Shown piece after piece: positions 11,450 to 63,176 of a stretch of DNA of 64,000 bases. The position numbers were made by a program, and so were the translations under genes. Position 1 is the stretch's first letter. Every line of letters starts with the position of its first letter. Source of the DNA: Rhodospirillales bacterium (lineage in GTDB: Bacteria > Pseudomonadota > Alphaproteobacteria > UBA828); the NCBI GenBank assembly GCA_028818565.1, contig JAPPNV010000307.1:16374-80373 (forward strand). The letters are read 5' to 3'. The notes beneath the pieces are model-generated. The model saw nothing but the letters and a program-made list of their open reading frames with translations, was not told the origin of the DNA and did no database searches.

Positions 11450-11579
11450 CACGTGGCACGGGCAAGGATAATCCCGCGAATTGCGGGCGGAACATGGCCG
11501 CCATTTCGGGAGAACTTTGCTTGCGCCATATCGTTATCTGACGCGGCAAGGGTGCCGGCTTTTCCGCCGGGAAATCCGC

Positions 11580-34271: not shown

Positions 34272-35045
34272 CTAGCCGTTCTCCGTGTCGAGCGCGGACC
34301 AATCGTCGAGCCGGCCGTAGAGGTAGGGCACGAATTCTTCGGCCGGGAGCCGGGCCAGCGGGCGGCAGGTGGAGAGCAGATCGCCCTCGATGTAGGAGGC
34401 GCCGCGCAACTCGCAGATCTCGATGTCGGCCAGCGGATCGTGCACTGTCGAGCGCAGCGCGAGCGTGCCGGTCCCCTCCCGCCGCACGGTCAGATGGTTG
34501 TCGAACTCGGCCAGCGTGAGGACAGGGTCGTCCTCAAGGCCGACACCGGTGCATGACGGTAGCGCCTTGATGTTGAAGTTGGCGCCCTTCTCGCGGCCGG
34601 GCTCCCGCTCGTGGGGCAGCGTCGCCTCGATCTCGATCACACGCGTGCCGAGCCGCTCGATGTAGCCGTGCATGGCATCCCCGCGCCGCTGCAGGCGCGT
34701 CGTGGCCTGCTTCTTGGGCTCGCCGAAGAGATCTCGCCCGAAGATGATCGCGTGGTCCTGATCCATGAACATGGCGAGCACGTAGGGCGCCTCGATTTCC
34801 CCGTGCCGGGCCATGACGTAGATGGCGCCGCCGGCGAAGTCGGCCACGCAGTTGGAGCGCCAGCGGCCCACCATCGCCGTCACCAGCGGCTCCGCCACGG
34901 GCTCGAGCCTGGGCGGCAGAATCTCGGCGACGATCTCCGGCCGCGTGAGAAAATCGACCATCAGCATCTCGGCGCCGACGAAGCGGGGCCGCTTCAGCAC
35001 CGCCTCGATGCGCTTCACTTCCTCCGGCGTTTTCACGAAGCCCAT
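34272..35045 (-). CDS. acetoacetate decarboxylase (ADC) family protein, paralogue
   Basis: 257 aa. It is distantly similar to the downstream ADC-family gene and is the same length class. It lies directly after the ABC ATPase genes. Confidence 0.65.
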   Translation of the reverse strand: MGFVKTPEEVKRIEAVLKRPRFVGAEMLMVDFLTRPEIVAEILPPRLEPVAEPLVTAMVGRWRSNCVADFAGGAIYVMARHGEIEAPYVLAMFMDQDHAIIFGRDLFGEPKKQATTRLQRRGDAMHGYIERLGTRVIEIEATLPHEREPGREKGANFNIKALPSCTGVGLEDDPVLTLAEFDNHLTVRREGTGTLALRSTVHDPLADIEICELRGASYIEGDLLSTCRPLARLPAEEFVPYLYGRLDDWSALDTENG

Positions 35046-35080: not shown

Positions 35081-35788
35081 TCAGGCGCCCAGATAGGCGC
35101 GGCGCAGCCGCTCGGAATCTCGAAGCGCGTCGACGGTGCCGCTGAAGCTCACTTCGCCGCCGGAGATAACGGTCCCATTGTCGGCGACCCGAAGCGCGAA
35201 CTCGGCGTTTTGCTCGGCGACGATGATGGTGAGCCCCAGCGACTTCAGCGCGCGGAACGTGTCGGCGAGCGTGTTGATGATGGCGGGTGCGAGGCCCAGC
35301 GTCGGCTCGTCCACCATGAGCAGCCGGGGCTGCGCCATCAGGCCGCGCGCGATGGTGAGCTGCTGCTGCTCGCCGCCCGAGAGCGTGCCACCCGCCTGCC
35401 GGGCGCGCTCCTTGAGGATCGGAAACATCGCGTAGTTGCGCTCGATCAGCTCGCGCGTCTTCGTCCGTTCGCGAATGTGAACGCTCGCACCCACCAGCAG
35501 ATTGTCGAGCACGCTCATCTCCGGAAAGATGCGCCGCCCTTCGGGCACGTGGGCGATGCCGTCCAGCACGATCCTGTCGGGCGCGCGACGGATGAGCGAC
35601 TTCCCTTCGAAATTGATCTGCCCGGCAAGCGGGCGCATGAGGCCGCTGATCGCGCGCAGGATCGAGGTCTTGCCTGCGCCGTTTGGGCCAAGCAGCGCGC
35701 AGACCTCGCCCTGATCCACCGACAGGTTGAAACCGCGCACCACGCGGTTCACCCCGTACGCGAGCGTCAGATCGTCGATCTCCAGCAT
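35081..35788 (-). CDS. branched-chain-amino-acid-type ABC transporter ATP-binding protein (LivF-like)
   Basis: Walker A (GPNGAGKTS), LSGGEQQ signature and Walker B (LLMVDEP) are present. Confidence 0.85.
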   Translation of the reverse strand: MLEIDDLTLAYGVNRVVRGFNLSVDQGEVCALLGPNGAGKTSILRAISGLMRPLAGQINFEGKSLIRRAPDRIVLDGIAHVPEGRRIFPEMSVLDNLLVGASVHIRERTKTRELIERNYAMFPILKERARQAGGTLSGGEQQQLTIARGLMAQPRLLMVDEPTLGLAPAIINTLADTFRALKSLGLTIIVAEQNAEFALRVADNGTVISGGEVSFSGTVDALRDSERLRRAYLGA

Positions 35789-35789
35789 C

Positions 35790-36539
35790 TCAGTGCTCGC
35801 CGCCGAGGTAGATGCTGACCACCTGTTCGTTCGCCCGGATCTCGTCGGGGGTGCCGGAGACCAGCAGCGCGCCGTGATGCATGACGAACAGGTACTCGCA
35901 GACGTCCATGACCACTTCCATGTTGTGGTCGATCAGGAGCATGGTGAGCCCGCCCCGCTGGCATTCGCGCAGGTGCTCGATCAGATCGAAGGACTCCTCC
36001 CGGCTGAAGCCGGCGAAGGGCTCGTCGAGCAGGAGCACCTTGGGGCCGAGAGCCAGCGCCTGGGCGATCTCGGCGCGCCGTCGCATCAGGTGGCTGAGAT
36101 CGGTCGGCAGGTCGGCGCGCACAGCCTCCAGCTCGAAGAATTCGAGGAGCGCGTCGCATCGCGCGTCCTCGTCGCCGACACAGCCTGGGTAGCTGAGATC
36201 GCGGCCGCCGTGCCGGCCTCCCCAGATCATCGCCGTCCTGATGTTTTCCTCCACCGACTCTTCGGTGAAGAGACGGTTCTTCTGGTAGGTACGGCTGAGG
36301 CCGCTGCGCGCGACCTTGTAGGACGGCAGGCGGTGGATCGGCTTCGAGTCCAGCATTACCGTGCCCGCATCGGGCGTCGCATGCTTGGTCACGAGGTTGA
36401 CGAAGGTGGTCTTGCCGGCGCCGTTCGGCCCGATCAGGCCGACCAGCGCCCCGCGCGGCACGTCGAAGCTCACGTCGCGCACGGCTTCGACGCCGCCGAA
36501 GCGCTTGCTCAGATCGCGCACCTCCAGAATGGCGTCCAT
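35790..36539 (-). CDS. branched-chain-amino-acid-type ABC transporter ATP-binding protein (LivG-like)
   Basis: GPNGAGKTT, the LSHLMRRRAEIAQAL region and LLLDEPFAG are present. The stop is 2 nt from the LivF-like start. Confidence 0.85.
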   Translation of the reverse strand: MDAILEVRDLSKRFGGVEAVRDVSFDVPRGALVGLIGPNGAGKTTFVNLVTKHATPDAGTVMLDSKPIHRLPSYKVARSGLSRTYQKNRLFTEESVEENIRTAMIWGGRHGGRDLSYPGCVGDEDARCDALLEFFELEAVRADLPTDLSHLMRRRAEIAQALALGPKVLLLDEPFAGFSREESFDLIEHLRECQRGGLTMLLIDHNMEVVMDVCEYLFVMHHGALLVSGTPDEIRANEQVVSIYLGGEH

Positions 36540-36545
36540 CGGCGC

Positions 36546-37583
36546 CTACTTTCCCCGCGTCGCGGCGCCGAGCGCCTGCGCCACGATCTGCCTGATGCCG
36601 ACGGACTCGAGGGCGAAGTGCCAGAGCAAATTGGCGCCGCCCCAGAGCCCACCGCGGAAGAACAGGACCGTGACCACGATCAGGCCGCCGAGGACGATCT
36701 GGTTCCACTTGCCGAAGTCCTGGATGAACTGATCGAGAACCACCAGGAAGACGACGCCGATGGCGGGCCCCAAAAGTGTGCCCGAGCCGCCGATGATGAC
36801 GTAGATCACATATTGGAAGGAGCTCCAGATCGTGAACGAGCTCGGGTCGATGGCGATCTGCATCGAGGCGTAGAGCGCGCCGGAGAGGCCCGCGAAGCCG
36901 GCGGCAAAGACGAAGACAAGCTGCTTGTAGCGGAAGACGTCGAGGCCGCGCGCGGCCGCGAGATCCTCGTCCTGCCGGATCGCGCTCAAGGCGCGCCCCA
37001 CGTGGCCACGCGCGAGCCACCAGGAGGCAAACGCCGCGATCACGAGGAAGAAGAGCACCACGATGAGGAAGCGCTGGTTGGTGACGAAGGCGTAGTCGCC
37101 AAGCGCGGGCCTGGGGATGCCGGCGGTGCCGTGCGGGCCGCCGGTGAACCACTCCCAGCTGTCGAACATGATGTAGAGGAGCTGGCCGACGGCCAGCGTG
37201 CCGATGGCGAAGTGGTAGCCGCGCAGCCGGAACAGCGGATAGCTCAGCAGGTACGCGAGCGCGCTGGTGATGATGATGGCGCAGGGCAGCGCGGCCCAGA
37301 AGTCGAACTCGAACTGCTGCACCGTGAGCACGCCGACCACGTAGGCGCCGACGCCGACGAATCCGCCCTGCCCCATTGCGAGGTAGCCCATGTGGCCCAT
37401 GAGCAGCCCGAAGGGGATGACCGCGATCATCGCCGTGCCCGCGCCCACCAGCAGACGCAGGTGATAGTTGTTGTCGACCACAGCCCACAGGATGCCGAGG
37501 AAGGCGAGCAGGACGAGCCAGCCGATCACGGCCCGCGTGCGGCGATCCCGAAGCGATATCCGGTGGGCCGGGAGGAGCGTCAT
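36546..37583 (-). CDS. branched-chain-amino-acid-type ABC transporter permease (LivM-like)
   Basis: 345 aa polytopic permease. The start overlaps the upstream permease stop by 4 nt. Confidence 0.8.
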   Translation of the reverse strand: MTLLPAHRISLRDRRTRAVIGWLVLLAFLGILWAVVDNNYHLRLLVGAGTAMIAVIPFGLLMGHMGYLAMGQGGFVGVGAYVVGVLTVQQFEFDFWAALPCAIIITSALAYLLSYPLFRLRGYHFAIGTLAVGQLLYIMFDSWEWFTGGPHGTAGIPRPALGDYAFVTNQRFLIVVLFFLVIAAFASWWLARGHVGRALSAIRQDEDLAAARGLDVFRYKQLVFVFAAGFAGLSGALYASMQIAIDPSSFTIWSSFQYVIYVIIGGSGTLLGPAIGVVFLVVLDQFIQDFGKWNQIVLGGLIVVTVLFFRGGLWGGANLLWHFALESVGIRQIVAQALGAATRGK

Positions 37584-38455
37584 GCGTTGCGATCCGGCAA
37601 GCCGAAGAGCCCTTGCGGGCGGATCATCAGAATCGCCAGGAGCACCAGGAAGGGCACCAGATCGCCGAGCTTGGAGCCGACGTAGAAGACCGTGAGGTTG
37701 TACAGAATGCCGAGGATGAGGCCGGCGACGATGGAGCCCGCGATGCTGCCCATCCCGCCGAAGATGATGATGACCAGCGCCATCAGCAGCGGCTGGAAGC
37801 CCATGTCCGGCCGCACGTTGAAAAGCGCGCCGAGCATGGCCCCGGCGGCGCCGCCGAGCGCGCCGCCGAGGAAGAACACGATTGCCGCCACCCGGCGCTT
37901 CTTGATGCCCATCAGCGCGGCGGTTTCCTCCCCCTGCGCGGTGGCGCGCATGGTGCGCCCGAGATGGGTGCGGTAGACGACGAAATAGAGCGATGCGAAC
38001 AGGACAAGAGTGATGGCGATGGTGACCAGCCGCGCTCCGTCGATACGGATTTCCCCGGCCGTCAGCGCCCAGTCCTCACCCGGCATGGCGATCGGCCGCG
38101 CCTCGAAGTCTCCCCAGATACGGAGCGCCGTGGTGCCGAGAACCATGTAGAGGCCGAGCGAGGCCAGAAGCTGGTCGGTGAGCGGGCGGCGCTGGAGGAA
38201 GCGGAAGACGGCGTTCTCCAGCACGATGCTGAGCAGCCCCATGACGATCATGGCGGCGAAGAAGCCGACGAAGAAATGTGTGCCGAGCTGCGTCGCGACC
38301 ACGTAGGCCACGAATCCGCCAAGCATGATGAGCTGCCCGTGGGCGAGGTTGATGACCCTGTAGACGCCGAAGATGAGGGCGAGCCCCGCGGCCGCCACGG
38401 CAAGGTTCATGCCGTACGAGGCGCCGTAAATCAGTTGTTGGGCGAACGCGGTCAC
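37580..38455 (-). CDS. branched-chain-amino-acid-type ABC transporter permease (LivH-like)
   Basis: MTAFAQQLIYGASYGMNLAVAAAGLALIFG... is a LivH-type N-terminus. Confidence 0.8.
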   Translation of the reverse strand: MTAFAQQLIYGASYGMNLAVAAAGLALIFGVYRVINLAHGQLIMLGGFVAYVVATQLGTHFFVGFFAAMIVMGLLSIVLENAVFRFLQRRPLTDQLLASLGLYMVLGTTALRIWGDFEARPIAMPGEDWALTAGEIRIDGARLVTIAITLVLFASLYFVVYRTHLGRTMRATAQGEETAALMGIKKRRVAAIVFFLGGALGGAAGAMLGALFNVRPDMGFQPLLMALVIIIFGGMGSIAGSIVAGLILGILYNLTVFYVGSKLGDLVPFLVLLAILMIRPQGLFGLPDRNA

Positions 38456-38552
38456 GAGATCACGCCCTTGCCGGCGGGGGACAGAATATGGACGTCAGAC
38501 AAACCGAGCCGCGAAGCGGTCCAGCCGGCGCGACCGCCCGGCGATTGAGGGC

Positions 38553-38595
38553 AAAAAAAGAGGCGGCGCACACCCTCTCGCGGGCAGGCGCCGCC
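38553..38595 (-). terminator. rho-independent terminator/attenuator between the SBP gene and the permease genes
   Basis: On the minus strand the sequence reads GGCGGCGC-ctgcccgcgagagggtgt-GCGCCGCC followed by TCTTTTTTT. That is an 8-bp GC stem plus a 7-U tract, about 50 nt after the SBP stop. Confidence 0.6.
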
Positions 38596-38647
38596 CCGGC
38601 GTCTTCTCAACCTGCGGAATCCGGCCTGGACCGTCCCCGCTACAGGG

Positions 38648-40027
38648 CTACTTCGGCAGCTTGTCGCCGTACACGTACGGGCCGTAGAAGAGCTCGTCCC
38701 GATAGCTGATGCCGGTATAGAAGACCTTCTCGTCCGCCACGCCGATGATGTACTCGGTCGCGAAGAGCTGGCCGGTCTTCTCGCCGGTATCGGGCCGGGT
38801 GAAGAACTCGTTTGTCGGCCCGCGCAGGCCGTTGATCTTCAGGTTGCGCCAGGCTTCCACGATCTTGTCGTTGTCGGTGTGGTCGCCCGAGGCCTGCACG
38901 CCGTAGAGGAACCAGATGGCGGCGTCGTAGGCGCCGCGATCGAAGGGGCTGGAGTTCCCGACCTCGGTGTCGCCGTACTTCGCGTTGTAGATGGGCACGT
39001 ACTTCTCGACGCGTGCGAGGGTCGCCTCGTCCTGCGCCGGGTTGTGCTCCTGCCAGCCCCAGACGTAGCCGGACGACATGTTGATGCCCTGGTCCTTGGC
39101 CACGTCGACGAAGATCTGCAGCATCAGCACGTCGTTGCCGAGCAGGATGATCTCGCCGGTCTCGTAGTTGAGGCCCTGCTTCTTCATCTCGTTCATGATC
39201 GCCAGCATGTCGGGGAAGATGTAGGCGTCCATGAGCACGATGTCGGGGTCCTGCTCGGCGAGCTTGGCGACGTGGGGCGCGAAGTCGGTGGTGCCGAAGG
39301 GATAGAGCACCGCCCAGTCGTGCTGGTACTCGTACCGGCCGCCGCCCTTCTCCACCGCTTCCTGCCAGCCGATGGAGCCGTGCACGGTGTAAAGCTCGTT
39401 GCGGCCGATGAAGCCGAGCTTCTTGCGCCCGTCGAAGAGGGCGGGGTCGATGCCGTGCTCCGCCAGCCTCTCGGGCGTTTCGTGGATGAACTCGCCCATG
39501 CCGTGCTTCTCGATCACGCCGGTGTCGGTGATGTCGTGGCCATACTTGCGGCCCACGGTCATCGCCGGGCTCGAGCAGATCGCGCAGATGCTGATGATGC
39601 CCTGCGGATCGAGGATCGAGGCGGCGGACAGCAACGCCGAATTCATCCGGGGGCCCCAGATCGCGCGGGCTTCATCCTGCTCGACCAGGCGGATGACGGC
39701 GTCGATCGACTTCTTGTCTTCCGAGACGTCGTCATAGGCCGTCCATTCGATGGGGATGACCTTGTCGCCGATCTTGAGCCCACCGCCTTCGCAGGGCTGC
39801 GGCGGTACGGCCTCGACGATGCAATCGCCCTTCATGAACTGCTCGACGGCGAGCCTCACGGCCGCTTCCTCGAAGAGGCCCAGGAACGAGGCCGGGCCCG
39901 ACAGCGTGAAGACGCCGCCGAACTTGAAGGTGTCTTCCGCCTTGGCCAGTTGCGGGCCGGCCACAAGCCCCGCACAGAGCGCCGCACCCAGCAGCCCTGC
40001 TCGAATTACTCCAAAGGATGATGCCAT
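38648..40027 (-). CDS. ABC transporter periplasmic substrate-binding protein (family 4 / Leu-Ile-Val-binding-protein type)
   Basis: The signal peptide is MASSFGVIRAGLLGAALCAGLVAGPQLAKA. It is a 459-aa type-I periplasmic binding fold, first gene of the operon. Confidence 0.8.
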   Translation of the reverse strand: MASSFGVIRAGLLGAALCAGLVAGPQLAKAEDTFKFGGVFTLSGPASFLGLFEEAAVRLAVEQFMKGDCIVEAVPPQPCEGGGLKIGDKVIPIEWTAYDDVSEDKKSIDAVIRLVEQDEARAIWGPRMNSALLSAASILDPQGIISICAICSSPAMTVGRKYGHDITDTGVIEKHGMGEFIHETPERLAEHGIDPALFDGRKKLGFIGRNELYTVHGSIGWQEAVEKGGGRYEYQHDWAVLYPFGTTDFAPHVAKLAEQDPDIVLMDAYIFPDMLAIMNEMKKQGLNYETGEIILLGNDVLMLQIFVDVAKDQGINMSSGYVWGWQEHNPAQDEATLARVEKYVPIYNAKYGDTEVGNSSPFDRGAYDAAIWFLYGVQASGDHTDNDKIVEAWRNLKINGLRGPTNEFFTRPDTGEKTGQLFATEYIIGVADEKVFYTGISYRDELFYGPYVYGDKLPK

Positions 40028-40127: not shown

Positions 40128-40916
40128 TCACGAGCCGAACGCCTCGGTCAGGCGACCGCGCCACCCGTGATTGGTCATGTCCAGCTGGATCGGCGTGACC
40201 GAAATCGCGTTCTCGTGGATCGCATGGAGATCGGTTCCGGGGTGTTTGCCACCGTCCTTGTAGCTGATCTCCACCCAGAAGTAGGGCACGTGGCGCGTGT
40301 CGATGCGCCCGTCGATGGTGAAGGAACCCGGCGGCCGCTGCCCCTGGGCGGTGATGCGGACGCCGCTCACCGATTCCGGCAGCGCATCCGGGAAGTTGAC
40401 GTTGACCAGCGTGCCCGAGGGCCAGTCCGGCAGGCGCATGAGGGTCTCGATCACGTCCGGTGCGAAGGCTTCCGCCGTGGCCCAGAGCGCCTCGCCGCCC
40501 ATGGTGAACACCTGGCTGAGCGCGATCGAGCGGATGCCGAGCAGGGTTCCCTCCATCGCTGCGGCGATGGTGCCGGAATAGGTCATGTCCTCCGCGAGGT
40601 TCGCGCCGCGATTGATGCCGGAGAGGAGGACCGTAGGCGGGCTCTCGGTCATCAGCTCGTGGATCGCCATCAGCGCGCAGTCGGTGGGCGTGCCGTCCAC
40701 CGCGTAGCGCCTCTCGCCCATCTGGCGCAGGCGGATCGGCGTATGCATCGAGATCGAATGGCCGGCACCGCTCCGCTCGTGATCCGGCGCGACGACCCAG
40801 ACGTCGTCTGACAGGCTCCGCGCGATCGCCTCGAGAATCTTCAGCCCCCTGGCGTGGATGCCGTCGTCATTGGTGACCAGGATGCGGTGGTGGGAGAGAT
40901 CGCTCTCCGCTGGCAT
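40128..40916 (-). CDS. surE: 5'/3'-nucleotidase SurE
   Basis: Internal ATG with AAAGGA SD gives MPAESDLSHHRILVTNDDGIHARGL..., the SurE signature. The upstream part of the track ORF is noise. Confidence 0.85.
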   Translation of the reverse strand: MPAESDLSHHRILVTNDDGIHARGLKILEAIARSLSDDVWVVAPDHERSGAGHSISMHTPIRLRQMGERRYAVDGTPTDCALMAIHELMTESPPTVLLSGINRGANLAEDMTYSGTIAAAMEGTLLGIRSIALSQVFTMGGEALWATAEAFAPDVIETLMRLPDWPSGTLVNVNFPDALPESVSGVRITAQGQRPPGSFTIDGRIDTRHVPYFWVEISYKDGGKHPGTDLHAIHENAISVTPIQLDMTNHGWRGRLTEAFGS

Positions 40917-41103: not shown

Positions 41104-41856
41104 GTGGCGAAGCTCTACGTGGACTCGGACAAGTACGGCGATCAGGCCCACTCGCCCACCGTCGAGGCGTTCCATAGCGCGATCAAGGACCTCGTCCGGC
41201 GCCGCCTCGACGAGAGCGGGGTCGACTGGAACAGCTTCGTCTTCGACAAGTCCTACGATCTGATTACCGCGGCCGATTTCGAGGAGATCGAGAGGAAACT
41301 CCTCGACGCCGGGCACCGCTACGACTTCTCGGCCGTGATTTCGGTGAACGAACGGCCCGAGGCCTACAAGCCCGCCGAAGGCATCTTGGGCGACGACCCC
41401 GACTGGACCATGGAGCACCCCGACGCGCCCTCAGGCGACGCAGACGCGGAGGGCCGGGCGCTCTGCGGCGTCGGCGACAACGTGATGCGCGTCTCCGAAA
41501 ACACCGTGGGCACCGCGCACTACGTCCGCTCCAGCAGCCAGGTCATGCGCTACCTCGGCGATGGCGTGCCGCCCGGGACCATCGCCATCATCGACGATTC
41601 CGGCGGGACCCTGACGGCGCCGATCCTGGAGCGGTTCGCCGGAATTATCTGCATGGGCGGCACCGTACGCTCCCATCTCGGCATCCTCTCGCGGGAGTAC
41701 GGCATTCCCTGCTTCATGAACGCCAAGATCACCGGGATCAGGGAAGGCGAGCGGCTGGAGATGGAGACCGCCGCGGCGGCGAAGACGGCGGAGGCCTACC
41801 AGAAGGGCGAGGAAATGACCGCCAACATCTGGAAGCTGGTCCAGGAGGCTCCGTGA
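41104..41856 (+). CDS. protein with a C-terminal PEP-utilising-enzyme mobile (phosphohistidine) domain
   Basis: GTG start with GGGGGAGAG SD. The C-terminal approximately 90 aa, GTIAIIDDSGGTLTAPILERFAGIICMGGTVRSHLGILSREYGIPCFMN, fits the swivelling phosphohistidine domain of PEP synthase/PPDK (GG-T-SH-AI-ARE-GIP). The N-terminal approximately 140 aa is unassigned. Confidence 0.6.
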   Translation: MAKLYVDSDKYGDQAHSPTVEAFHSAIKDLVRRRLDESGVDWNSFVFDKSYDLITAADFEEIERKLLDAGHRYDFSAVISVNERPEAYKPAEGILGDDPDWTMEHPDAPSGDADAEGRALCGVGDNVMRVSENTVGTAHYVRSSSQVMRYLGDGVPPGTIAIIDDSGGTLTAPILERFAGIICMGGTVRSHLGILSREYGIPCFMNAKITGIREGERLEMETAAAAKTAEAYQKGEEMTANIWKLVQEAP

Positions 41857-43409
41857 TGGTCGGCGCGCCGCGACTTTCATACGCCCAGCTGCTGGAGACC
41901 AACAACCTCCTTCAGACCTTCACCGACGAGACCTACTGGCTCTGCGTCACGCGGACGGTGCAGGAGTCGAAGCTCTTTCCTGTGCCGCCCTACATGCTGC
42001 TCTCGTACCTCAACGCCTTCTACCGCTATCCCTCGCTCTTGCGGAAGGTGGAGAGCGTGATGACGGCGGAAGAGATCGGCGACCGCGCCCGCGAGGGGCG
42101 CCCGCCCGGCAAAAGCGCCATGGGCTGGGGGATGCCGGGCTTTTACCTGCTCGGCCGCGAGTGGCTCATCAACATGGGGCTGCTGCGGCCACAGGACGCC
42201 GCCGAAGACGTCGTCTACCTGATGGATTTCTGGAAGCGCCTGCAGCTCTCCTGGCACAGGAACGACGGGCACATCACGAACAAGGAATTCGGCCACCGCT
42301 GCCAGATCCTGCCCGAACGCAGGCTCCAGGTCTTCGAGTCCGACGCCTACGGCTGCGAGACCGGCGATCCGCTGCACAGCGCGGCGACCCAGTTCATGGC
42401 GTCTGCGGCCCAATACGGCTTCCTGGTGAGCTGCGAGAGCCGCATCAGCCTGCTCAACACCGGGCCCTACAAGCTTGCCGACGGCAACGAGATGATCGTC
42501 CGCGAATTCATGGACCTCGGCGAGGGCGACTTCCCCTGGCTCGACGACGTGGCTGCGGACATTCCCTACAACAACCTCACCGTCCCGATGCTGGTGAAGG
42601 ACTGCCACTTCTACCTGGTCGACGACTGGGGCAGCTTCGAATCCGAGCCCGAGTTCCGGGCAGAGAGCATCGTCGGCGTCGGCCTCTACACCTCCGACCC
42701 GCTCACCGAGGGGCACGTTCCGGTGGGGATGGAGAGCCGCGAGGCCCTGACCGAGACCTTCCGCACGCTGGACGGGCTCTTCAAGGAGGCGACGGCGCGG
42801 CTCTGGAAGCGCATCGCCGGCTGGAGCCGCGACCAGATGCTCGATGCCGGCGCGCTCACCTACTTCGGCATCTGCAAGGATCTCGCCCATGTCGCCGGCG
42901 TCTACGCCCACGAGGACTGGATGCTGATCGACGAGCGGGCCGAGCGCTTCCGCCCGCTGCTCAACGACGAGTTCAGCCGCGACTGCCTGGGCGAGCTGGT
43001 GGGGCTGCTGACGCTGCCGAGCCATCGCCTCTCGTCCTACAGCATGATGCAGCACGGCAACGGCCCGACGCGCATGTACACGCCGATCCCCTACGCGATC
43101 CTGGACGGCGAGGGTTACGTGCCCACCTGCGGCCCGGTCTACCCCGGCGCCACCACGCTCCCGGCCAAGGCCGACCGCTACCGCACCAGCCAGGGTGTGC
43201 TGACGCTGGAGGAGTACAACCTACGGGTCCGTGACTTCGCGCCGCAGTCGGATCGGTATCGTTTCCTGGACGAGACCTGGCTCAAGTACAACCACGACAC
43301 GCCGCGTGCCGACAAGATGTACCGGCACGAGCAGGAGCGGGCGCGCAAGATCCAGGATTGCGGCGCATCGCTCGGCGCTGCGGAGCTGGCGGCGCTTCCC
43401 CGCGACTAG
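41856..43409 (+). CDS. hypothetical protein (517 aa), translationally coupled to the upstream phosphohistidine-domain protein
   Basis: ATG at 41856 overlaps the upstream TGA (GTGATGG), with AGGAGG 8 nt upstream. I recognise no family (MVGAPRLSYAQLLETNNLLQTFTDETYWLCVTRTVQESKLFPVPPYMLLSYLNAFYRYPSLL...). Confidence 0.55.
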   Translation: MVGAPRLSYAQLLETNNLLQTFTDETYWLCVTRTVQESKLFPVPPYMLLSYLNAFYRYPSLLRKVESVMTAEEIGDRAREGRPPGKSAMGWGMPGFYLLGREWLINMGLLRPQDAAEDVVYLMDFWKRLQLSWHRNDGHITNKEFGHRCQILPERRLQVFESDAYGCETGDPLHSAATQFMASAAQYGFLVSCESRISLLNTGPYKLADGNEMIVREFMDLGEGDFPWLDDVAADIPYNNLTVPMLVKDCHFYLVDDWGSFESEPEFRAESIVGVGLYTSDPLTEGHVPVGMESREALTETFRTLDGLFKEATARLWKRIAGWSRDQMLDAGALTYFGICKDLAHVAGVYAHEDWMLIDERAERFRPLLNDEFSRDCLGELVGLLTLPSHRLSSYSMMQHGNGPTRMYTPIPYAILDGEGYVPTCGPVYPGATTLPAKADRYRTSQGVLTLEEYNLRVRDFAPQSDRYRFLDETWLKYNHDTPRADKMYRHEQERARKIQDCGASLGAAELAALPRD

Positions 43410-43450: not shown

Positions 43451-44947
43451 ATGCAGATCGGCGAATACATCCGGCGCGCGGGCGCCATGTTCGGCGAGGC
43501 GCCAGCGCTGACCGAGGGCGCGCGCACGCTGAGCTTCCGCGCACTCGACGAAGCGACGGACCGGCTCGGCAACGCGCTGCTGGTGGAAGGCTTCGAGCCG
43601 GGCGATCGCGTCGGCGTGCTGCTGCCCAACGGGATCGACTGCCTGATCGCCTACTACGCGCTTGCCAAGTGCGGCCTCGTGCGGGTCTCGCTCAACGTGC
43701 GCGAGACCGCGGCGGACCATCGCTACAAGTTGGGCGATAGCGGCGCGCGTGGACTCATCCACGACGGCTCTGGCAGTGCCGACGGCATCGATGTGGAACT
43801 CGTCTACGACCTCGACGCTCTGCGCCGGCTCATCGACGACGGCCCGCCCGGCGCCTGCCGCGTGGACCGCGACCTTGAGGCGCCCTTTCGCCTGGGCTTC
43901 ACCGGCGGGACCACCGGCGCGCCCAAGGCGGTCACGCTCACCACGCTGGGCGAGACTGCGGAGCTCTCGGCCTTTCTCATGGACCTGGTGCCGGACCTCG
44001 CGCCGGGCGACCGCTTTCTCCACGCCGCCCCCATCGCACACGCATCGGGCGCCTTCTTCCTGCCCTCGCTGGTGCGGGGCGTGCACCAATGGATCATGCC
44101 GCACTTCGACGCGGCCGGCTTCATCGCCATGGCCGCGCAGGGGCAGGCGACCCATACCTTTCTCGTGCCGACCATGCTGGCCATGATCATGGAGGAGCCC
44201 GCGCTGGAGACGGCGACGCTCCGCTTCAAGCGCATCTGCTACGGCGCTTCGCCCATCGCGCCGAGCCTCTTGGAGCGCGCCATGGACCGCTTCGGGCCGG
44301 TCTTCGCCCAGACCTACGGCCAGGCTGAATCGCCGATGGTTATCACCTGTCTCGGGCCGGAGGATCACGACCGCGTGGGCTCGTGCGGGCGGCCCTATAC
44401 CACCGTGGACGTGGCGATCTTCAACGATGACGACATGCCCGTGCCCACCGGCGAGCGGGGCGAGATCGTCTGCCGCGGCACCCAGCTCATGGCCCGTTAC
44501 TGGAACCGCCCGGAGGAGACGGCCAAGGCCTTCCGCAACGGCTGGCTCCATACCGGCGACATCGGCCGCATGGACGAGGACGGCTTCTTCTACATCCTCG
44601 ACCGAAAGAACGACATGCTCATCAGCGGTGGCTACAACGTCTATCCCCGGGAGATCGAAGACGTGCTGCTTGCGTACGAGGGCGTTGTCGAGGCCGCGGT
44701 CGTGGGCTTGCCCGACGAGAAGTGGGGCGACCGCGTTCATGCGGTGGTCGCCGGGCGGCCCGGCCTGGACCCGGAGGCCGTGCGGCTGTTCTGCCGCGAG
44801 CGGCTAGCGGGCTACAAGTGCCCGAAGAGCGTCGAGATCTGGGACACGCTGCCCAAGAGCGGGGCCGGCAAGCTCCTGCGCCGCGCCGTGCGCGACCGCG
44901 TTATCGCGGCGGCAGCCACCGAGGCGCCCGTGCAGCCGGGCAACTGA
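43451..44947 (+). CDS. AMP-dependent synthetase/ligase (acyl-CoA synthetase family)
   Basis: AMP-binding motifs FTGGTTGAPKAV, YGQAESP, GWLHTGDIG and the lysine-containing C-terminal KSGAGKLLRR are present. Confidence 0.85.
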   Translation: MQIGEYIRRAGAMFGEAPALTEGARTLSFRALDEATDRLGNALLVEGFEPGDRVGVLLPNGIDCLIAYYALAKCGLVRVSLNVRETAADHRYKLGDSGARGLIHDGSGSADGIDVELVYDLDALRRLIDDGPPGACRVDRDLEAPFRLGFTGGTTGAPKAVTLTTLGETAELSAFLMDLVPDLAPGDRFLHAAPIAHASGAFFLPSLVRGVHQWIMPHFDAAGFIAMAAQGQATHTFLVPTMLAMIMEEPALETATLRFKRICYGASPIAPSLLERAMDRFGPVFAQTYGQAESPMVITCLGPEDHDRVGSCGRPYTTVDVAIFNDDDMPVPTGERGEIVCRGTQLMARYWNRPEETAKAFRNGWLHTGDIGRMDEDGFFYILDRKNDMLISGGYNVYPREIEDVLLAYEGVVEAAVVGLPDEKWGDRVHAVVAGRPGLDPEAVRLFCRERLAGYKCPKSVEIWDTLPKSGAGKLLRRAVRDRVIAAAATEAPVQPGN

Positions 44948-44950: not shown

Positions 44951-45553
44951 ATGAGCGACACCTACCTCGTCCTCCACGGGCTTGCGATCAAGAAGCACGC
45001 GGACGCTGGCGCGGTTGCCGCTGCGCTCGGACTCGCCGAGGACGAGGTGCGCGCCGTGCTGGACGATGCGGTGGCGAAAGGCCGCGCAGCGCGCGCAGGC
45101 GAGGCATATTCGCTGACTCCCGTCGCCCGTGTGGCGCTCGACGGCGCCTATTCCCGGCTCTTCGCCGCGCAACGGGCCGATGAGGCCTTCGCCGCCGCCC
45201 ACGAGCGCTTCGAGGCGATCAACATAGAGCTAAAGCAGCTGATGACCGCGTGGCAGACCATCGAGATCGATGGCGAGAACGTGCTGAACGACCACACCAA
45301 CAAGGACTACGACGACAGGCTGATCGACCGCCTCGGCGCCCTGCACGAGCGGGCGGAGACGACCCTCCAGCAACTGAGCGCCGGGCTGCCACGCCTCGCA
45401 ATTTATTCGGAAAAGCTCGAAGCGGCGCTGGAGAAGGCCGAGGACGGCGCCATCGAGTGGGTCAGCGGCGCGCGGATCGAGTCCTACCACACGGTCTGGT
45501 TCGAGCTTCACGAGGACCTGCTGCGGATCCTCGGCCGCACGCGGCAGGAATAG
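44951..45553 (+). CDS. hypothetical protein (200 aa; possible winged-helix-like N-terminal region)
   Basis: It starts 4 nt after the ligase stop. Its stop TAG overlaps the next start region (TAGGCATG). No confident family assignment. Confidence 0.5.
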   Translation: MSDTYLVLHGLAIKKHADAGAVAAALGLAEDEVRAVLDDAVAKGRAARAGEAYSLTPVARVALDGAYSRLFAAQRADEAFAAAHERFEAINIELKQLMTAWQTIEIDGENVLNDHTNKDYDDRLIDRLGALHERAETTLQQLSAGLPRLAIYSEKLEAALEKAEDGAIEWVSGARIESYHTVWFELHEDLLRILGRTRQE

Positions 45554-45555: not shown

Positions 45556-47316
45556 ATGGGTGCCGTCGGCCGCTGGGTCCTTTCCCTTGACGGCGCTGCG
45601 TTGCCCGACGGTGCGCTTGTCGGGGGCAAGGCGTGGGGCATCGCCTTCATGCGCCACGCGGGCCTCCCGGTGCCGCCCGCCTTCGTGGTGACGACAGAGG
45701 CCTGCCGCGCCTACCTCGCCGAGGGCCAGTTGCCGGATGGCCTCACCGACGAGCTTCACGCCGGCATCGCCATGCTGGAGGCGGAGACCGGGCGCCGCTT
45801 CGGCGTGCCCGAGCGCCCGTTGCTGCTGGCGGTCCGCTCCGGCGCCGCCATCAGCATGCCGGGCATGCTGGATACGGTGCTCAATCTCGGGATCGACGAA
45901 GAGATTGAGGCGGCTCTGGCGCGAGAAAGCGGCGACGTGGCCTTCGCCCGCGACACCCACCGGCGCTTCCACGAGATGTACGCGCGCATCGTGCTCAAGG
46001 CGGGGATCGACGGGCTTCCGCCCGAGGGATCCGTCGAGGAATGGCGGGCGGCCGTGGCGGAGGCGGGGGCCGCAGCCAGGGTGCCGGAGGCGCCGGTCGA
46101 TCAGCTTCTCGGCGCGGTTCGTGCCGTCTTCGACTCATGGAACGGGCGGCGCGCGAAGCGTTATCGCCGGCATCACGGGCTCGCGGATGACGCGGGCACC
46201 GCCGTCACGGTGCAGGCCATGGTGTTTGGCAACCTCGGCGCGAACAGCGGGACGGGCGTGCTTTTCAGCCGCAATCCGCTCACCGGTGCGCCTGTGCCTT
46301 ACGGCGAGTATCTTGCCTGCGCCCAGGGGGAGGACGTGGTCTCCGGCCAGCGGACGCCGCAGGGACTCGATGCGCTGTCGTCGTCCCTGCCGGAGGCGCA
46401 CGCCGCCCTGATCGACGCCGCGGGCCGGCTGGAGGCGCTGAACCGGGATGTGCAGGACATCGAGTTCTCGGTACAAAATGGCGCGCTCTACCTGTTGCAG
46501 ACCCGCACCGCCGCCCGGGCTCCCGCAGCGGCCATGCGCATCGCCGTCGATCTGGTGAACGAGGGAACCATCTCCTCCGACGAAGCGCTCGCCCGCGTCA
46601 GCGCGGCCCAGGTCCGGACGCTGCTCATGCCCCGCCTCGATGAGGGCGCCGGAGAGGACGCCGCCCTGCTCGCGGAAGGCGAGGGCGCGAGTCCTGGTGT
46701 CGGCATCGGCAAAGTCGTGCTGGATGCCGACGCGGCCGAGGCGAGCGGCGCGGCCGGCGAGGACGTGGTGCTGGTGCGCCCGACCACCAGCCCGGAGGAC
46801 GTGCACGGCATGGTCGCCGCCCGCGCGGTCGTGACGGCGACCGGGGGTGCGACCTCGCACGCCGCCGTGGTAAGCCGCTCCCTCGGCGTTCCCTGCGTCG
46901 TCGGCTGCGGCGAAGGCGTGGGCGCGGCGCTTGCGGGCAGGGAGGTGACGGTGGATGGCAAGGCCGGGCAGGTGTTCGATGGTGTCCTGCCGGTGAGCAT
47001 TCCCGCGGAGACGGACGATCCGTACCTGCGCCGGATTGCGGCATGGGCCCGCGCGGCCGCGCCCATCGCGGTCTATCGCGCCGAAGATTCGGCGCCCAAC
47101 GGCGCGGTCGATCTCGACCGCTTGCCCGGCGGTGAGGAACCGGAGCGAATGCCCGCGCTGCTCGCGGGGGCTCCCGGCGCAAAGGGCGGCGCGCTCGCCA
47201 GCGATGCGGGTGTCGCGGCCGCCGTTGCCGCCGGCCTCGACTTCATCGTTGTTCGCCACGCTCTGCCGGCCCTGCTCGCGGCCTGTGCCGCCGCGCGCGC
47301 CGAGGCTGCCACATGA
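45556..47316 (+). CDS. pyruvate-phosphate-dikinase-like protein: PPDK_N nucleotide-binding domain plus central phosphohistidine domain, lacking the C-terminal PEP/pyruvate TIM barrel
   Basis: MGAVGRWVLSLDGAALPDGALVGGKAWGIAFMRHAGLPVPPAFVVTTEACRAYLAEG...LLLAVRSGAAISMPGMLDTVLNLG...RRFHEMYARIV...VFDSWNGRRAKRYRRHHGLADDAGTAVTVQAMVFGNLGANSGTGVLFSRNPLTG...YGEYLACAQGEDVVSGQRTP is collinear with the PPDK N-terminal domain. ATGGATSHAAVVSRSLGVPCVVGC is the catalytic His swivel domain. The protein ends about 80 aa later, so there is no room for the roughly 300-aa PEP-utilizers C domain. Confidence 0.8.
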   Translation: MGAVGRWVLSLDGAALPDGALVGGKAWGIAFMRHAGLPVPPAFVVTTEACRAYLAEGQLPDGLTDELHAGIAMLEAETGRRFGVPERPLLLAVRSGAAISMPGMLDTVLNLGIDEEIEAALARESGDVAFARDTHRRFHEMYARIVLKAGIDGLPPEGSVEEWRAAVAEAGAAARVPEAPVDQLLGAVRAVFDSWNGRRAKRYRRHHGLADDAGTAVTVQAMVFGNLGANSGTGVLFSRNPLTGAPVPYGEYLACAQGEDVVSGQRTPQGLDALSSSLPEAHAALIDAAGRLEALNRDVQDIEFSVQNGALYLLQTRTAARAPAAAMRIAVDLVNEGTISSDEALARVSAAQVRTLLMPRLDEGAGEDAALLAEGEGASPGVGIGKVVLDADAAEASGAAGEDVVLVRPTTSPEDVHGMVAARAVVTATGGATSHAAVVSRSLGVPCVVGCGEGVGAALAGREVTVDGKAGQVFDGVLPVSIPAETDDPYLRRIAAWARAAAPIAVYRAEDSAPNGAVDLDRLPGGEEPERMPALLAGAPGAKGGALASDAGVAAAVAAGLDFIVVRHALPALLAACAAARAEAAT

Positions 47317-47792
47317 CCATCGACCGCAAGGAGGTCGAGGCGCTGATCCGCCTCTTCGAGCGGTCGGACTGGCACGAGCTCCGGCTCGAGACCGACGGGC
47401 TGAAGCTGGTGCTCTCGAAGGACGCGGATGCGGCAGCGCTCGGGTCGGAAGCCGAGGCTGCCGCAGCCTCGGCAGAGAAGGCTCCCCTGGAAACCACACG
47501 CGCCCAGGACGACGTGGCGCCGGTGGACGGGCTGGTCCCGATCACGGCGCCCAACCTCGGCACCTTCTATCGCGCGCCGAAGCCGGGGGTCGCGCCCTAC
47601 GTGGAGGTCGGCCAGCAGGTCGGCGAGGCAACCGAGGTATGCCTGATCGAGGTCATGAAGCTGTTCACGCCGGTTCGGGCCGGGATCAACGGCCGGATCG
47701 CCAAGGCCTGCGTCGAGGACGGCGAGATGGTGGAGTTCGGCGCGCCGCTCTTTCTGGTCGAGCCGGAGGCCGAAGCGGCCGAGAAGGCGTGA
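47313..47792 (+). CDS. biotin carboxyl carrier protein (biotinyl/lipoyl domain protein)
   Basis: ATGA overlap with the upstream stop. The C-terminal biotinyl domain carries the CLIEVMKLFTPV lysine motif (AMKM-type) within a GxxVxxGxxL hammerhead context. Confidence 0.8.
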   Translation: MTIDRKEVEALIRLFERSDWHELRLETDGLKLVLSKDADAAALGSEAEAAAASAEKAPLETTRAQDDVAPVDGLVPITAPNLGTFYRAPKPGVAPYVEVGQQVGEATEVCLIEVMKLFTPVRAGINGRIAKACVEDGEMVEFGAPLFLVEPEAEAAEKA

Positions 47793-49150
47793 TGGCCCTC
47801 TCGCGCGTCTTCGTCGCCAACCGGGGGGAGATCGCCGTGCGCATCGTCCGCGCCTGCCGCTCCCTCGGGCTCGAGAGCGTCGTCGGGGTCTCCGACGCCG
47901 ACCGCGAGGGCCTGGCGGCGGAGCTTGCGGACCGCGCCGTGGTGCTGGGGCCGGCGCCGGCGCGCGAGAGCTACCTCAACGCCAATCTCGTGGTTCATGC
48001 GGCGAAGGCGACCGCATGCGACGCGCTGCATCCGGGCTACGGCTTCCTCTCCGAATCTTCGGCCCTCGCCGGGCTGTGCGAGCGGGAGGAGATCGTGTTC
48101 GTGGGGCCGCGGGCCGAGACCATCGAGCGGCTCGGCGACAAGCTCACCGCCCGCGCCATCGCAGCCGAGGCGGACGTGCCCATTGTCCCTGGTTCCGGCG
48201 AGATCCGCGCGGCAGCGGAGGCACGCACGTTTGCCGCGCGGGTCGGCTATCCGGTGCTGATGAAGGCCAGCGCCGGCGGCGGCGGGCGCGGCATGTTCGT
48301 TGCGCGAACGGACGCGGACATCGACGACGGTTTCGAGCGCGCATCGGCGGAAGCCGAAGCCGCCTTCGGCGACGGGGCGCTCTTCGTCGAGCGCTTCGTC
48401 GAGGACGCGCGTCACGTCGAGGTCCAGATCATGGGGGACGGTGCAGGCGCGGTCGTCCACTTCGGCGAGCGGGATTGCTCGGTGCAGCGGCGCTTCCAGA
48501 AGGTGGTGGAGGAAGCGCCGGCGGCGGCGCTGTCGGCCGAGGCGCGCGCGCAGATCCACGACGCCGCCTGCCGTCTCGCCCGGCACCTCGACTATCAGAG
48601 CGCCGGCACGGTCGAGTTCCTCTACGACGTGGCACGCGGCGAGGCCTATTTCATCGAGGCCAACGTGCGTATTCAGGTTGAGCATCCGGTGACGGAGGAA
48701 GTCACCGGCATCGACCTGATCGAGGAGCAGTTGCGCATCGCTGGAGGTGGCGGGCTCAGCGTCGCGCAGGGGGACATCGCCCTTGCCGGCCACGCCATCG
48801 AATGCCGGATCAACGCCGAGGCGCCGGAGCGGGACTTCGCGCCGTCGCCCGGTTTGATCGACGCCTGGCGCGCACCGGAGGGCCAGGGCATCCGCATCGA
48901 CAGCCACTGCCGCGCGGGCGCCTTCGTGTCTCCCTTCTACGACAGCATGATCGCCAAGCTGATCGTGCGCGCCGGCGACCGCACGCAAGCGGTGGAGCGC
49001 ATGAGCGGCGCGCTGGACGCGTTTCGGATCGGTGGCATCGACACCAACCTCGCGTTCCAGGCGCGCCTCGTGCGGCACCCTGACTTCGCAGCCAACAGTC
49101 TCAACACGCGCTGGCTGGAGGATGTCTTCATGCCCTCGCTCATGCACTAG
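47792..49150 (+). CDS. biotin carboxylase (ATP-grasp; AccC-like subunit)
   Basis: TGATG overlap with the BCCP stop. MALSRVFVANRGEIAVRIVRACRSLG..., YPVLMKASAGGGGRGM and EANVRIQVEHPVTE are present. It runs the full length of AccC (452 aa). Confidence 0.85.
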   Translation: MALSRVFVANRGEIAVRIVRACRSLGLESVVGVSDADREGLAAELADRAVVLGPAPARESYLNANLVVHAAKATACDALHPGYGFLSESSALAGLCEREEIVFVGPRAETIERLGDKLTARAIAAEADVPIVPGSGEIRAAAEARTFAARVGYPVLMKASAGGGGRGMFVARTDADIDDGFERASAEAEAAFGDGALFVERFVEDARHVEVQIMGDGAGAVVHFGERDCSVQRRFQKVVEEAPAAALSAEARAQIHDAACRLARHLDYQSAGTVEFLYDVARGEAYFIEANVRIQVEHPVTEEVTGIDLIEEQLRIAGGGGLSVAQGDIALAGHAIECRINAEAPERDFAPSPGLIDAWRAPEGQGIRIDSHCRAGAFVSPFYDSMIAKLIVRAGDRTQAVERMSGALDAFRIGGIDTNLAFQARLVRHPDFAANSLNTRWLEDVFMPSLMH

Positions 49151-49166: not shown

Positions 49167-50627
49167 ATGGCGCATATCGAATTCCTCGACGAGACCATGC
49201 GGGACGGGCAGCAGAGCCTTTGGGGCATGCGCATGCAGGCCGGCATGGCGCTCCCCATTGCGCCGGTCATCGATCGGGTGGGCTACCGCGTGGTGGACCT
49301 CACGGGCTCCAGCCTCTTCGAGGTGCTGATCCGCCACTGCCGCGAGAACCCGTGGGAAGGGCTCGACCTCCTGGTCGACGCCATGCCGAACAGCACGATC
49401 CGCGGCGGCATGCGCAGCAACGCGAGCGTTACCTTCGGCGTCACACCCGATGCGCTGATGGACGTCTGGATGCGGCAGCTTTGCGTCCACGGCTGCCGCA
49501 GCTTCTGGATCTACGACGTTCTCTTCAATATCGACAAGACGCACCGCCTCGCCAAGGTGGCCAAGGAGTTCGGCGCGGAGGTGGCGGGCGCCATCATGTT
49601 CACGCTGAGCCCGGTTCACACCGACGACTATTACGCCGACAAGGCGGACAGGCTCTCCGCCTCGCCGGATATCGACACGCTCCTGCTTTACGACACGGGC
49701 GGCGTGCTGGAGCCCGACCGCATGCGCACGCTGGTTCCGGCGATCATGGCGAAGGCGCGCGGCAAGCCCATCGAGTTCCACTCGAATAACCTCCTCGGCG
49801 CCTCCGGTCGCGCCTACGTCGAGGCGATCAAGCTCGGCATCCGCATCCTGCACACCGCCTGCGGACCCATGGCGAACGGCCCCTCGGTGCCCTCGGTCGA
49901 GGTGATGACGCGGAACGTCGAGCACCTGGGCCATACCCACAACATCGACCGCTCGCTGTTGCCGCAGATCGCGGAGCACTTCGAGAGCGTGGCCGCGGCG
50001 GCCGGGTTCCCCATCGGCGTGCCGCAGGAATACGACCTCTTCTCCGTGCGGCATCAGGTGCCGGGCGGGATGATGGGCACGCTCAAGGCGCAGCTCGTCC
50101 AGCACGAGATGGCGGACCGGCTCGACGACGTGCTGGAGGAAACCGGCCACGTGCGCCGCGAGCTCGGCTACCCCGGCATGGCGACACCGTTCTCCCAACT
50201 GGTCGGCACGCTGGCTGTGCTCAACATCGTCACCGGCGAGCGCTATTCCGTTATCCCGGACGAGGTGATCCAATACGCCGGTGGGCACTACGGCGAGCCG
50301 GTCGCGCCCATCGATGAGGACGTGCTGGACCGGATTATGGCCGCACCTCGCGCCAGGGAGGTGCTGGCCGAGCCGCCGGAGCAGCCTGCGCTGGCCGAGC
50401 TGCGCAAGCGCCACGGCACCGATGACGACGACGAGCTGATCCTGCGTGCCCTGGTCCCGGCGGCGGACCTCGACAGGATGCGCGCCGCGGGCCCGGTGAA
50501 GCGGGACTTCCCGATTCTCTCCACGCCGGAGCTCGAGCACGTGCGCAAGCTGATGGCGCTCTCCACCTCGAAGTACGTCGAGGTGGAGACCGCGAACCTC
50601 TCGGTCTCGTTGCGCCGCGCCGGCTAG
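49167..50627 (+). CDS. carboxyltransferase subunit of a biotin-dependent oxo-acid carboxylase (HMGL-like TIM barrel plus PYC/OadA-type domain; no biotinyl domain)
   Basis: AGGAGAGCGACG SD. FLDETMRDGQQSLWGMRM...IDRVGYRVVDLTGSS...LIRHCRENPWEGL...FWIYDVLFNIDK...MFTLSPVHTDDYY...LLLYDTGGVL...IEFHSNNLLGASGRAYVEAIKLG is collinear with the pyruvate carboxylase B-subunit / oxaloacetate decarboxylase alpha carboxyltransferase domain. Confidence 0.8.
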   Translation: MAHIEFLDETMRDGQQSLWGMRMQAGMALPIAPVIDRVGYRVVDLTGSSLFEVLIRHCRENPWEGLDLLVDAMPNSTIRGGMRSNASVTFGVTPDALMDVWMRQLCVHGCRSFWIYDVLFNIDKTHRLAKVAKEFGAEVAGAIMFTLSPVHTDDYYADKADRLSASPDIDTLLLYDTGGVLEPDRMRTLVPAIMAKARGKPIEFHSNNLLGASGRAYVEAIKLGIRILHTACGPMANGPSVPSVEVMTRNVEHLGHTHNIDRSLLPQIAEHFESVAAAAGFPIGVPQEYDLFSVRHQVPGGMMGTLKAQLVQHEMADRLDDVLEETGHVRRELGYPGMATPFSQLVGTLAVLNIVTGERYSVIPDEVIQYAGGHYGEPVAPIDEDVLDRIMAAPRAREVLAEPPEQPALAELRKRHGTDDDDELILRALVPAADLDRMRAAGPVKRDFPILSTPELEHVRKLMALSTSKYVEVETANLSVSLRRAG

Positions 50628-55901: not shown

Positions 55902-56116
55902 CTTCGGGAAATCGCGCCCCGCCCCACCTCGTTATTCCGGCAAGGCTCACGCCGCGCTGGACGTGCAGGCCTTGGAGCCGGCACGATCCTTCAACAATTC
56001 AAACAGTGATGTGAACCGCACCGCGGACGCGTTGACTCGGTCGCGGCCCGGCCGCATCGTGCGCCGCGAACTTGAGCTGGCGCGGCGGCGGAACAGGAAC
56101 CGCGTACGGGGGTTGC

Positions 56117-57784: not shown

Positions 57785-57881
57785 TTTCGCCGAGGTCCCT
57801 GGCCCGAAGCGCCCGCTCACGTTGACTTGGAGGCGCCGTGAACGGATAGTGCGCGCTTTCCAAATCCCGGGAGGCGCTGCC

Positions 57882-60642: not shown

Positions 60643-62571
<1,929 letters not shown>

Positions 62572-62594
62572 AAGAGACGACGGGAGGCAGAACG

Positions 62595-63137: not shown

Positions 63138-63176
63138 CCGCGCTCGGCGCCGCCTCTAACTGCCGGCGGCGAACCG

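Follow-up and report, generated by a model that had tools for sequence, protein, structure and literature searches.

A candidate four-protein swivel-histidine dikinase encoded with a biotin-dependent carboxylase in a Rhodospirillales bacterium

What is the function of a small phosphohistidine protein whose gene overlaps that of a larger protein without recognizable motif, at the head of an operon encoding a biotin-dependent carboxylase? This question is raised by two open reading frames, ORF1 and ORF2, found in a 64,000-nucleotide stretch of DNA from a Rhodospirillales bacterium (assembly GCA_028818565.1, contig JAPPNV010000307.1, positions 16,374 to 80,373; hereafter the window). From sequence comparisons, we consider it probable that ORF1 and ORF2 form the substrate-side half of a four-protein ATP-dependent swivel-His dikinase that feeds the adjacent carboxylase. 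The other half would consist of two proteins of the same operon, a truncated pyruvate phosphate dikinase (PPDK) and a protein named p200.

The ORF1 protein is confirmed as the carrier of a genuine swivel phosphohistidine domain. Its residues 156-209 match PF00391 (PEP-utilizers, where PEP is phosphoenolpyruvate) with an E-value of 4e-7 and 29.9 bits for a gathering cut-off of 23.1, and it falls within the swivel-domain fold. As had been proposed in an earlier note on this DNA, the domain is present besides the PF00391 domain of the PPDK-like protein. The same note had tied a role in phosphotransfer to the conservation of the histidine in the motif R-S-H-L-G. This residue, His191 (within GGTVRSHLG), does not vary in sets of 16 and of 35 homologues, and the fusion proteins P0297 and P0314 described below retain it; its phosphorylation is predicted. 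The N-terminus of ORF1, MAKLYVD, is kept among homologues as well, which supports the GTG start.

The two genes are joined as the earlier note had described. The ORF1 stop codon TGA (41854-41856) and the ORF2 ATG (41856) have one base in common, and an AGGAGG Shine-Dalgarno sequence is located 7 nt upstream of the ATG; an in-frame GTG at 41853 is an unlikely start of ORF2 since it is too near this site. The TGATG junction is retained in close relatives (L003-L012). In genomes less closely related, the two genes are separated by a gap of 2-40 nt with a GGAGG-like site, or overlap by 8 nt (L022), which indicates that close adjacency is conserved and that the precise overlap is lineage-specific. 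The overlap is also one case of an operon-wide coupling, because two more start/stop overlaps occur further downstream, ATGA (47313..47316) between the genes for PPDK and the biotin carboxyl carrier protein (BCCP), and TGATG (47790..47794) between those for BCCP and the biotin carboxylase (BC). From this arrangement, the co-production of ORF1 and ORF2 in stoichiometric amounts is plausible.

ORF2 had been presented as an orphan protein devoid of assignable motifs. The second part of this description holds and the first does not, ORF2 being a member of a large conserved family. A word-indexed search returned 1015 matches, with ∼65% identity across classes. The best 120 of these 1015 matches, which stem from metagenomes as well as from Alpha- and Gammaproteobacteria, are 63-96% identical over nearly their full length; all are annotated as 'hypothetical' and none carries a Pfam domain. 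When representatives at 50% identity were searched exhaustively, 430 matches were obtained, among which a distant branch of ∼380-aa proteins aligns to ORF2 residues 15-370 with 25-34% identity. The conserved core thus covers approximately residues 10-380, the C-terminal ∼120 aa being confined to the carboxylase-linked subfamily. ORF2 has no match in Pfam, NCBIfam or PADLOC, ten diverse homologues have none in Pfam, and a comparison with the PDB gave no match by sequence (best E 0.6) or by family profile. Its predicted model is confident and is without relative among solved structures. No clear homology to a family unrelated to phosphotransfer, which the earlier note had considered as a counter-argument, was found. 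Arginines are frequent among the conserved positions (R33, R101, the invariant R196 and R216, besides Y46, Y205 and G100), a pattern that fits phosphate binding. The possibility that ORF2 is a diverged PpsA/HpeH substrate domain was considered and rejected, the probability returned by hhalign for the ORF2 family and a mycobacterial PpsA-like protein being 0.2%.

Natural gene fusions place ORF2 in a functional context. In three proteins of ∼720 aa (P0052, P0054 and P0110), ORF2 is fused at its C-terminus to a p200 homologue. Among the distant homologues, P0297 and P0314 combine a PF00391 swivel domain at the N-terminus with an ORF2-like core, and P0276 is preceded by an overlapping gene for a 117-aa swivel-only protein. 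All three parts are found in a 793-aa 'PEP-utilizing enzyme' encoded by plasmid pROB02 of Rhodococcus opacus B4, which is a triple fusion of a swivel domain (18-113), an ORF2-like core (212-547) and a p200-like domain (603-790). Because these natural fusions join them, ORF1, ORF2 and p200 would constitute a single functional unit working with the truncated PPDK. The association of swivel domains with ORF2-like cores also supports the earlier proposal that ORF2 may be the substrate-binding or phosphoryl-accepting module, a role that we propose from sequence. The gene of the triple fusion is followed by a Y_phosphatase3 gene, with genes for a truncated PPDK, a cytochrome P450, an alcohol dehydrogenase (ADH) and an aldehyde dehydrogenase (ALDH) nearby. 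This P450/ADH/ALDH/phosphatase layout beside a distant relative of ORF2 resembles that of the 4-cresol (Cre) pathway. A 214-aa gene located after the P0297 fusion was also compared with p200, and the comparison gave no support for homology. On plasmid pRB98 of Rhodococcus oxybenzonivorans (L024), two further paralogous sets are found just upstream of a full module (7902..12272): a 125-aa swivel-only gene with a 398-aa ORF2-like gene, and a 542-aa swivel-core fusion with a 381-aa hypothetical gene. These sets suggest that one donor may serve several acceptor subunits.

On the donor side, the PPDK of the window matches PPDK structures with an E-value of 3e-115, only over residues 1 to ∼535 (nucleotide and His domains). 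Since the C-terminal PEP/pyruvate-binding TIM-barrel is absent, it is neither a canonical PPDK nor a PEP synthase. It belongs to the same NCBIfam equivalog (NF004531) as VadK (Rv1127c) of Mycobacterium tuberculosis, which autophosphorylates on His422 with ATP and Mg and was co-expressed with its 'operonic partner' Rv1126c, their separation taking a 2 M NaCl wash (PMC13400623). According to the authors, no acceptor domain for VadK is encoded in the genome, and VadK is reported as a methylcitrate-cycle regulator that binds the enzymes of that cycle (PMC13400623). In contrast, PPDK and p200 of the window are accompanied by dedicated swivel and acceptor proteins and by a carboxylase. From its position and size, p200 may be homologous to Rv1126c. 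Plasmids of M. avium and M. branderi carry a gene for a truncated PPDK (48-50% identical) and, directly after it, a 200-aa gene for a p200 homologue (31-43% identical). These pairs (L030 on M. avium pP7a and L031 on the M. branderi plasmid) are found near PpsA-like proteins with a C-terminal swivel domain. The 'PEP-utilizing enzyme' beside the mycobacterial pair was considered as an ORF2-like protein and rejected, since it is PpsA-like with the swivel at the C-terminus. Because the pair also adjoins PpsA-like proteins, PPDK/p200 looks like a donor module for differing swivel-bearing acceptors.

The regulatory activity described for VadK raises the question of whether the whole system is a phosphorelay. 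The truncated PPDK and p200 would then signal the energy state, with ORF1 and ORF2 as protein phospho-acceptors or effectors tuning the carboxylase or the CoA enzymes. Several p200-like C-terminal halves encoded on actinobacterial plasmids do bear annotations as transcriptional regulators, of the MarR type or of other types, and in the R. opacus B4 triple fusion (L025) the p200-like domain gives a weak TrmB-like match. We nevertheless regard such a regulatory role as improbable. Four to five dedicated genes, with ∼65% identity across classes, stand inside a catabolic operon; the fusions are arranged like those of enzymes such as PpsA and rifampin phosphotransferase; phosphatase genes accompany the module; and ORF2 has no DNA-binding or known regulatory domain in Pfam or NCBIfam.

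The conservation of the gene neighbourhood was assessed by searching fetched loci with the window proteins (tblastn). Complete modules are present in Rhodospirillales metagenome-assembled genomes (ORF2 93-97% identity), Chachezhania sediminis, Roseiarcus fermentans, Gemmobacter, Acetobacteraceae and Gammaproteobacteria, as well as on R. oxybenzonivorans pRB98 and Novosphingobium resinovorum pSA1. The module ORF1/ORF2/(ligase)/p200/truncated PPDK/BCCP/BC/carboxyltransferase (CT)/thiolase spans Rhodospirillales, the Roseobacter group, Gammaproteobacteria and Rhodococcus, with some loci without the internal ligase and with an ORF2-p200 fusion. A SurE phosphatase gene occupies the same divergent position in L001, L003, L005-L013, L015, L018, L019, L026 and L029. 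In the Rhodococcus locus L024, it is replaced by a Y_phosphatase3 gene after the thiolase, and L029 has both phosphatases.

On these grounds, a reaction sequence can be proposed. The histidine of the truncated PPDK would first be phosphorylated from ATP, as shown for VadK. By analogy with the tight VadK-Rv1126c association and in view of the fusions, p200 would tether PPDK to ORF2. The phosphoryl group would then reach His191 of ORF1, either via the PPDK histidine relay or directly from the PPDK ATP-grasp domain, and ORF1 would hand it to a small-molecule substrate bound on ORF2, which would replace the PEP/pyruvate barrel of PPDK. The phosphorylated substrate, presumably of the methyl-ketone type, would be carboxylated by BCCP, BC and CT and then dephosphorylated by SurE. 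Finally, the ligase would form a beta-ketoacyl-CoA to be split by the thiolase. The most likely acceptor appears to be a hydroxyl acting as a phosphate handle, which is favoured because two unrelated phosphatase families recur and because the distant relative of ORF2 is found in the Cre-like P450/ADH/ALDH/phosphatase cluster.

Several points weigh against this dikinase scheme. We know of no direct precedent for a His-to-His transfer between two swivel domains, here those of PPDK and ORF1. In addition, the module is split in N. resinovorum pSA1 (L026, 14001..25774), where ORF2 stands just before BCCP/BC/CT/ligase and where SurE, ORF1, p200 and the truncated PPDK are grouped ∼7 kb away in a block of their own; the function of ORF2 could therefore be nearer to the carboxylase. 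Together with an alignment in which no acidic, histidine or cysteine residue is conspicuous as an invariant catalytic candidate, this separation of ORF2 from ORF1 and p200/PPDK would suit a structural or accessory ORF2, namely a kinase-carboxylase scaffold or a channelling lid, the acceptor site being on another subunit such as CT. We give little credence to such a role, since some loci without any carboxylase encode distant ORF2-like cores together with swivel domains and since the core is large (∼370 aa), strongly conserved and contains many conserved arginines. Both this accessory role and the regulatory phosphorelay are less likely than a third alternative, which is suggested by the carboxylase itself.

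In most of the loci at greater distance, the CT is better conserved than any other module protein, and yet its active site is remodelled. The carbamyl-lysine motif KDMAG is changed into YDTGG (EDAAG in Rhodococcus), the HxH metal ligands into HxN, and the threonine at the proton-shuttle position into glycine. The altered residues are conserved in 22 of the 22 module CTs, whereas the CTs of two clusters of the Acv/MarK type (L032 and L033, see below) retain IKDPxG, HxH and T. This remodelling hints at a carboxylation chemistry unlike that of pyruvate carboxylase. The loss of the canonical metal ligands and of the threonine is a further point against the proposed scheme, as carboxyl transfer may differ from that of the Hpe/Acv carboxylases, and so is the lack of any phosphatase gene within 10 kb in L002, L014, L027 and L028.

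These last two observations could be reconciled by an enol-phosphate route, in our view the main rival and an unlikely yet serious one. ORF2 would bind a plain methyl ketone (e.g. 2-alkanones, acetone or acetophenone-like compounds) and phospho-ORF1 would make its enol phosphate; the remodelled CT would carboxylate this pre-formed enol equivalent with release of the phosphate. The missing carbamyl-Lys, His ligand and Thr shuttle are ketone-enolising parts of the enzyme, and the donor is a true homologue of PPDK, whose native product is an enol phosphate. The similarity of the ligase and thiolase to fatty-acid-type enzymes and the presence of P450, luciferase-like monooxygenase and mutase genes around one locus point in the same direction. 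However, recurring phosphatases of two unrelated families would be needless if the phosphate were lost on carboxylation, and the Cre-like cluster of the distant ORF2 relative implies a stable phosphoester. Moreover, to our knowledge, no biotin enzyme is known to take an enol phosphate.

A broader version of this idea, which we hold to be slightly more doubtful, would make PPDK and p200 (the VadK-Rv1126c pair) a general phosphoryl donor for interchangeable swivel-His acceptors, with ORF2 as a new fold that makes the enol phosphate of an unactivated methyl ketone for carboxylation by a metal-free, remodelled CT. If true, this would represent a new chemistry of biotin-dependent ketone carboxylation, and it would suggest that the missing partner or ancestral role of VadK is that of a small-molecule dikinase.

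The genes of the operon and the divergent SurE gene are listed in Table 1. The pair heads a run of nine genes on the + strand with intergenic distances of -4 to 41 nt. A scan for promoters and terminators of this operon gave nothing above the shuffled background, and no site of either kind breaks up the + strand run, though such a scan is weak evidence.

Table 1. Coordinates and assignment of the gene pair, its internal ribosome-binding site and the associated genes of the window
Feature	Position	Strand	Assignment and remarks
ORF1	41104..41856	+	250 aa, GTG start; helical N-terminal part (~residues 18-68) and C-terminal swivel phosphohistidine carrier domain
ORF2	41856..43409	+	517 aa; proposed substrate-binding phosphotransfer domain
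AGGAGG Shine-Dalgarno sequence of ORF2	41843..41848	+	Within the ORF1 3' end; read from the sequence; GGAGG kept here in close relatives
SurE-family phosphatase	40128..40916	-	Divergent from the operon; PF01975 E 1.6e-58; NF001490 336 bits (cut-off 233); candidate for dephosphorylation
Acyl-CoA ligase (AMP-forming)	43451..44947	+	PF00501, PF13193; syntenic in most loci
p200	44951..45553	+	200 aa; no Pfam match; proposed adaptor between ORF2 and truncated PPDK
Truncated PPDK	45556..47316	+	PF01326 ATP-grasp and own PF00391 swivel His domain; NF004531 704 bits (cut-off 456)
BCCP	47313..47792	+	EVMKL biotinylation motif; PF00364; TIGR00531 108 bits, slightly below the 115.2 cut-off
BC	47792..49150	+	PF02786, PF02785, PF00289; NF006367 603 bits
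CT	49167..50627	+	Pyruvate carboxylase / oxaloacetate decarboxylase family; PF02436; 2nx9 E 2e-59; under all NCBIfam cut-offs
Thiolase	50635..51804	+	Degradative type; PF00108, PF02803; TIGR01930 436 bits; syntenic

Other genes of the window and of related loci deserve mention. SurE is adjoined by a branched-chain-type ABC transporter (35081..40027), and next to this transporter the - strand encodes two neighbouring members of the acetoacetate decarboxylase (ADC) family (33459..34247 and 34272..35045). Since beta-keto acids are the substrates of ADC-family enzymes, these two may be linked to the beta-ketoacid that the carboxylase would produce. Downstream of the operon, 56072..59051 and 61123..63923 encode an AlsS-like thiamine-diphosphate enzyme (NF006187, 740 bits), a class-III aminotransferase, an amidohydrolase and an amidase fragment, which appear to be catabolic and unrelated. 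Genes for SulP/STAS-family anion transporters are found near the module in two unrelated genomes (L001 919..2631 and L027 15311..16963); some SulP proteins transport bicarbonate, which is needed by a carboxylase.

The module is widespread, being found in marine and soil Alphaproteobacteria, in Gammaproteobacteria and in Rhodococcus, and its analysis provides a large family of 'hypothetical' proteins, that of ORF2, with a testable function. Besides, VadK has been proposed as a drug target in tuberculosis, and truncated PPDKs of its type are shown here to be encoded elsewhere with separate putative acceptor subunits and a conserved 200-aa partner, which offers a biochemical model of what VadK-Rv1126c may do. 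In the literature, we found no description of a kinase module of the window type, and the only relevant papers are those on Hpe/Acv, MarK and VadK.

The closest parallels are found in the catabolism of acetovanillone and 4-hydroxyacetophenone, which starts with a kinase that is either HpeHI/AcvAB (hydroxyphenylethanone kinases homologous to the phenylphosphate synthase PpsAB) or the UPF0261 protein MarK. The biotin carboxylase HpeCBA/AcvCDE then acts, in Rhodococcus, on the phosphorylated compound only, and the remaining stages are catalysed by a HAD phosphatase followed by CoA activation and cleavage (PMC9618137; bioRxiv 10.1101/2022.04.28.489975; PMC12624787). The window operon comprises all elements of an Hpe/Acv-type operon, i.e. 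a putative kinase, BCCP-BC-CT, phosphatase, CoA ligase and cleavage enzyme. Like the systems of Rhodococcus GD02 (HpeHI) and Sphingobium SYK-6 (AcvAB), it combines a swivel-His dikinase, as predicted here, with a phosphatase, a CoA ligase and a C-C cleavage enzyme, and the BCCP-BC-CT order is identical. Its BC and CT are ∼50% and 38-41% identical, respectively, to those of Acv/MarK-type clusters on plasmids. The differences are nevertheless numerous. The substrate-side subunit is non-homologous, ORF2 matching no PRK08296/PpsA-like NCBIfam model; the swivel is borne by a separate protein and is N-terminal when fused; the ATP-side protein has its own His domain, and p200 is an additional subunit; the CT active site is remodelled; and the phosphatase is SurE or Y_phosphatase3 instead of a HAD enzyme.

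A similar balance emerges from the comparison with PpsAB(C) of Thauera aromatica and CreHI of Corynebacterium. These are split dikinases as well, in which an ATP-grasp protein loads the histidine of a separate substrate-binding protein and the phosphoester product is used by downstream enzymes. However, PpsB and CreI are without His domain, and PpsA and CreH carry the substrate domain and the histidine on one chain, unlike the proteins of the window, where ORF2 is in addition unrelated in sequence. Consistently, the substrate side does not qualify as an alpha subunit of the PpsA/HpeH/AcvA/CreH type, since its partner carries PF01326 and PF00391 and is not an ATP-grasp protein devoid of His domain. 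Rifampin phosphotransferase (RPH) and the canonical PPDK and PEP synthase also rank among the nearest known systems.

Finally, MarK of Novosphingobium aromaticivorans resembles the present system as an alternative, non-homologous kinase encoded directly upstream of BCCP-BC-CT-phosphatase. It differs in being monomeric and in operating without a phosphohistidine relay, and Pfam searches revealed no UPF0261 gene in the window operon. Two plasmids of bisphenol degraders, pBAR1 of Sphingomonas bisphenolicum (L032) and a plasmid of Pseudomonas putida YC-AE1 (L033), carry a gene annotated as Tm-1-like ATP-binding protein, which we take to be of the UPF0261/MarK type, followed by BCCP, BC, CT and a HAD hydrolase; by analogy, these clusters suggest a 4-hydroxyacetophenone-type route. 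Because MarK-type clusters hold a non-homologous kinase there, the kinase slot upstream of BCCP-BC-CT-phosphatase appears to be interchangeable. A 2025 survey recognized only two kinase types for these pathways. If our proposal is correct, a third type, structurally unrelated to both HpeHI/AcvAB and MarK, would join this recently discovered phosphorylate-then-carboxylate route for acetyl-substituted compounds.

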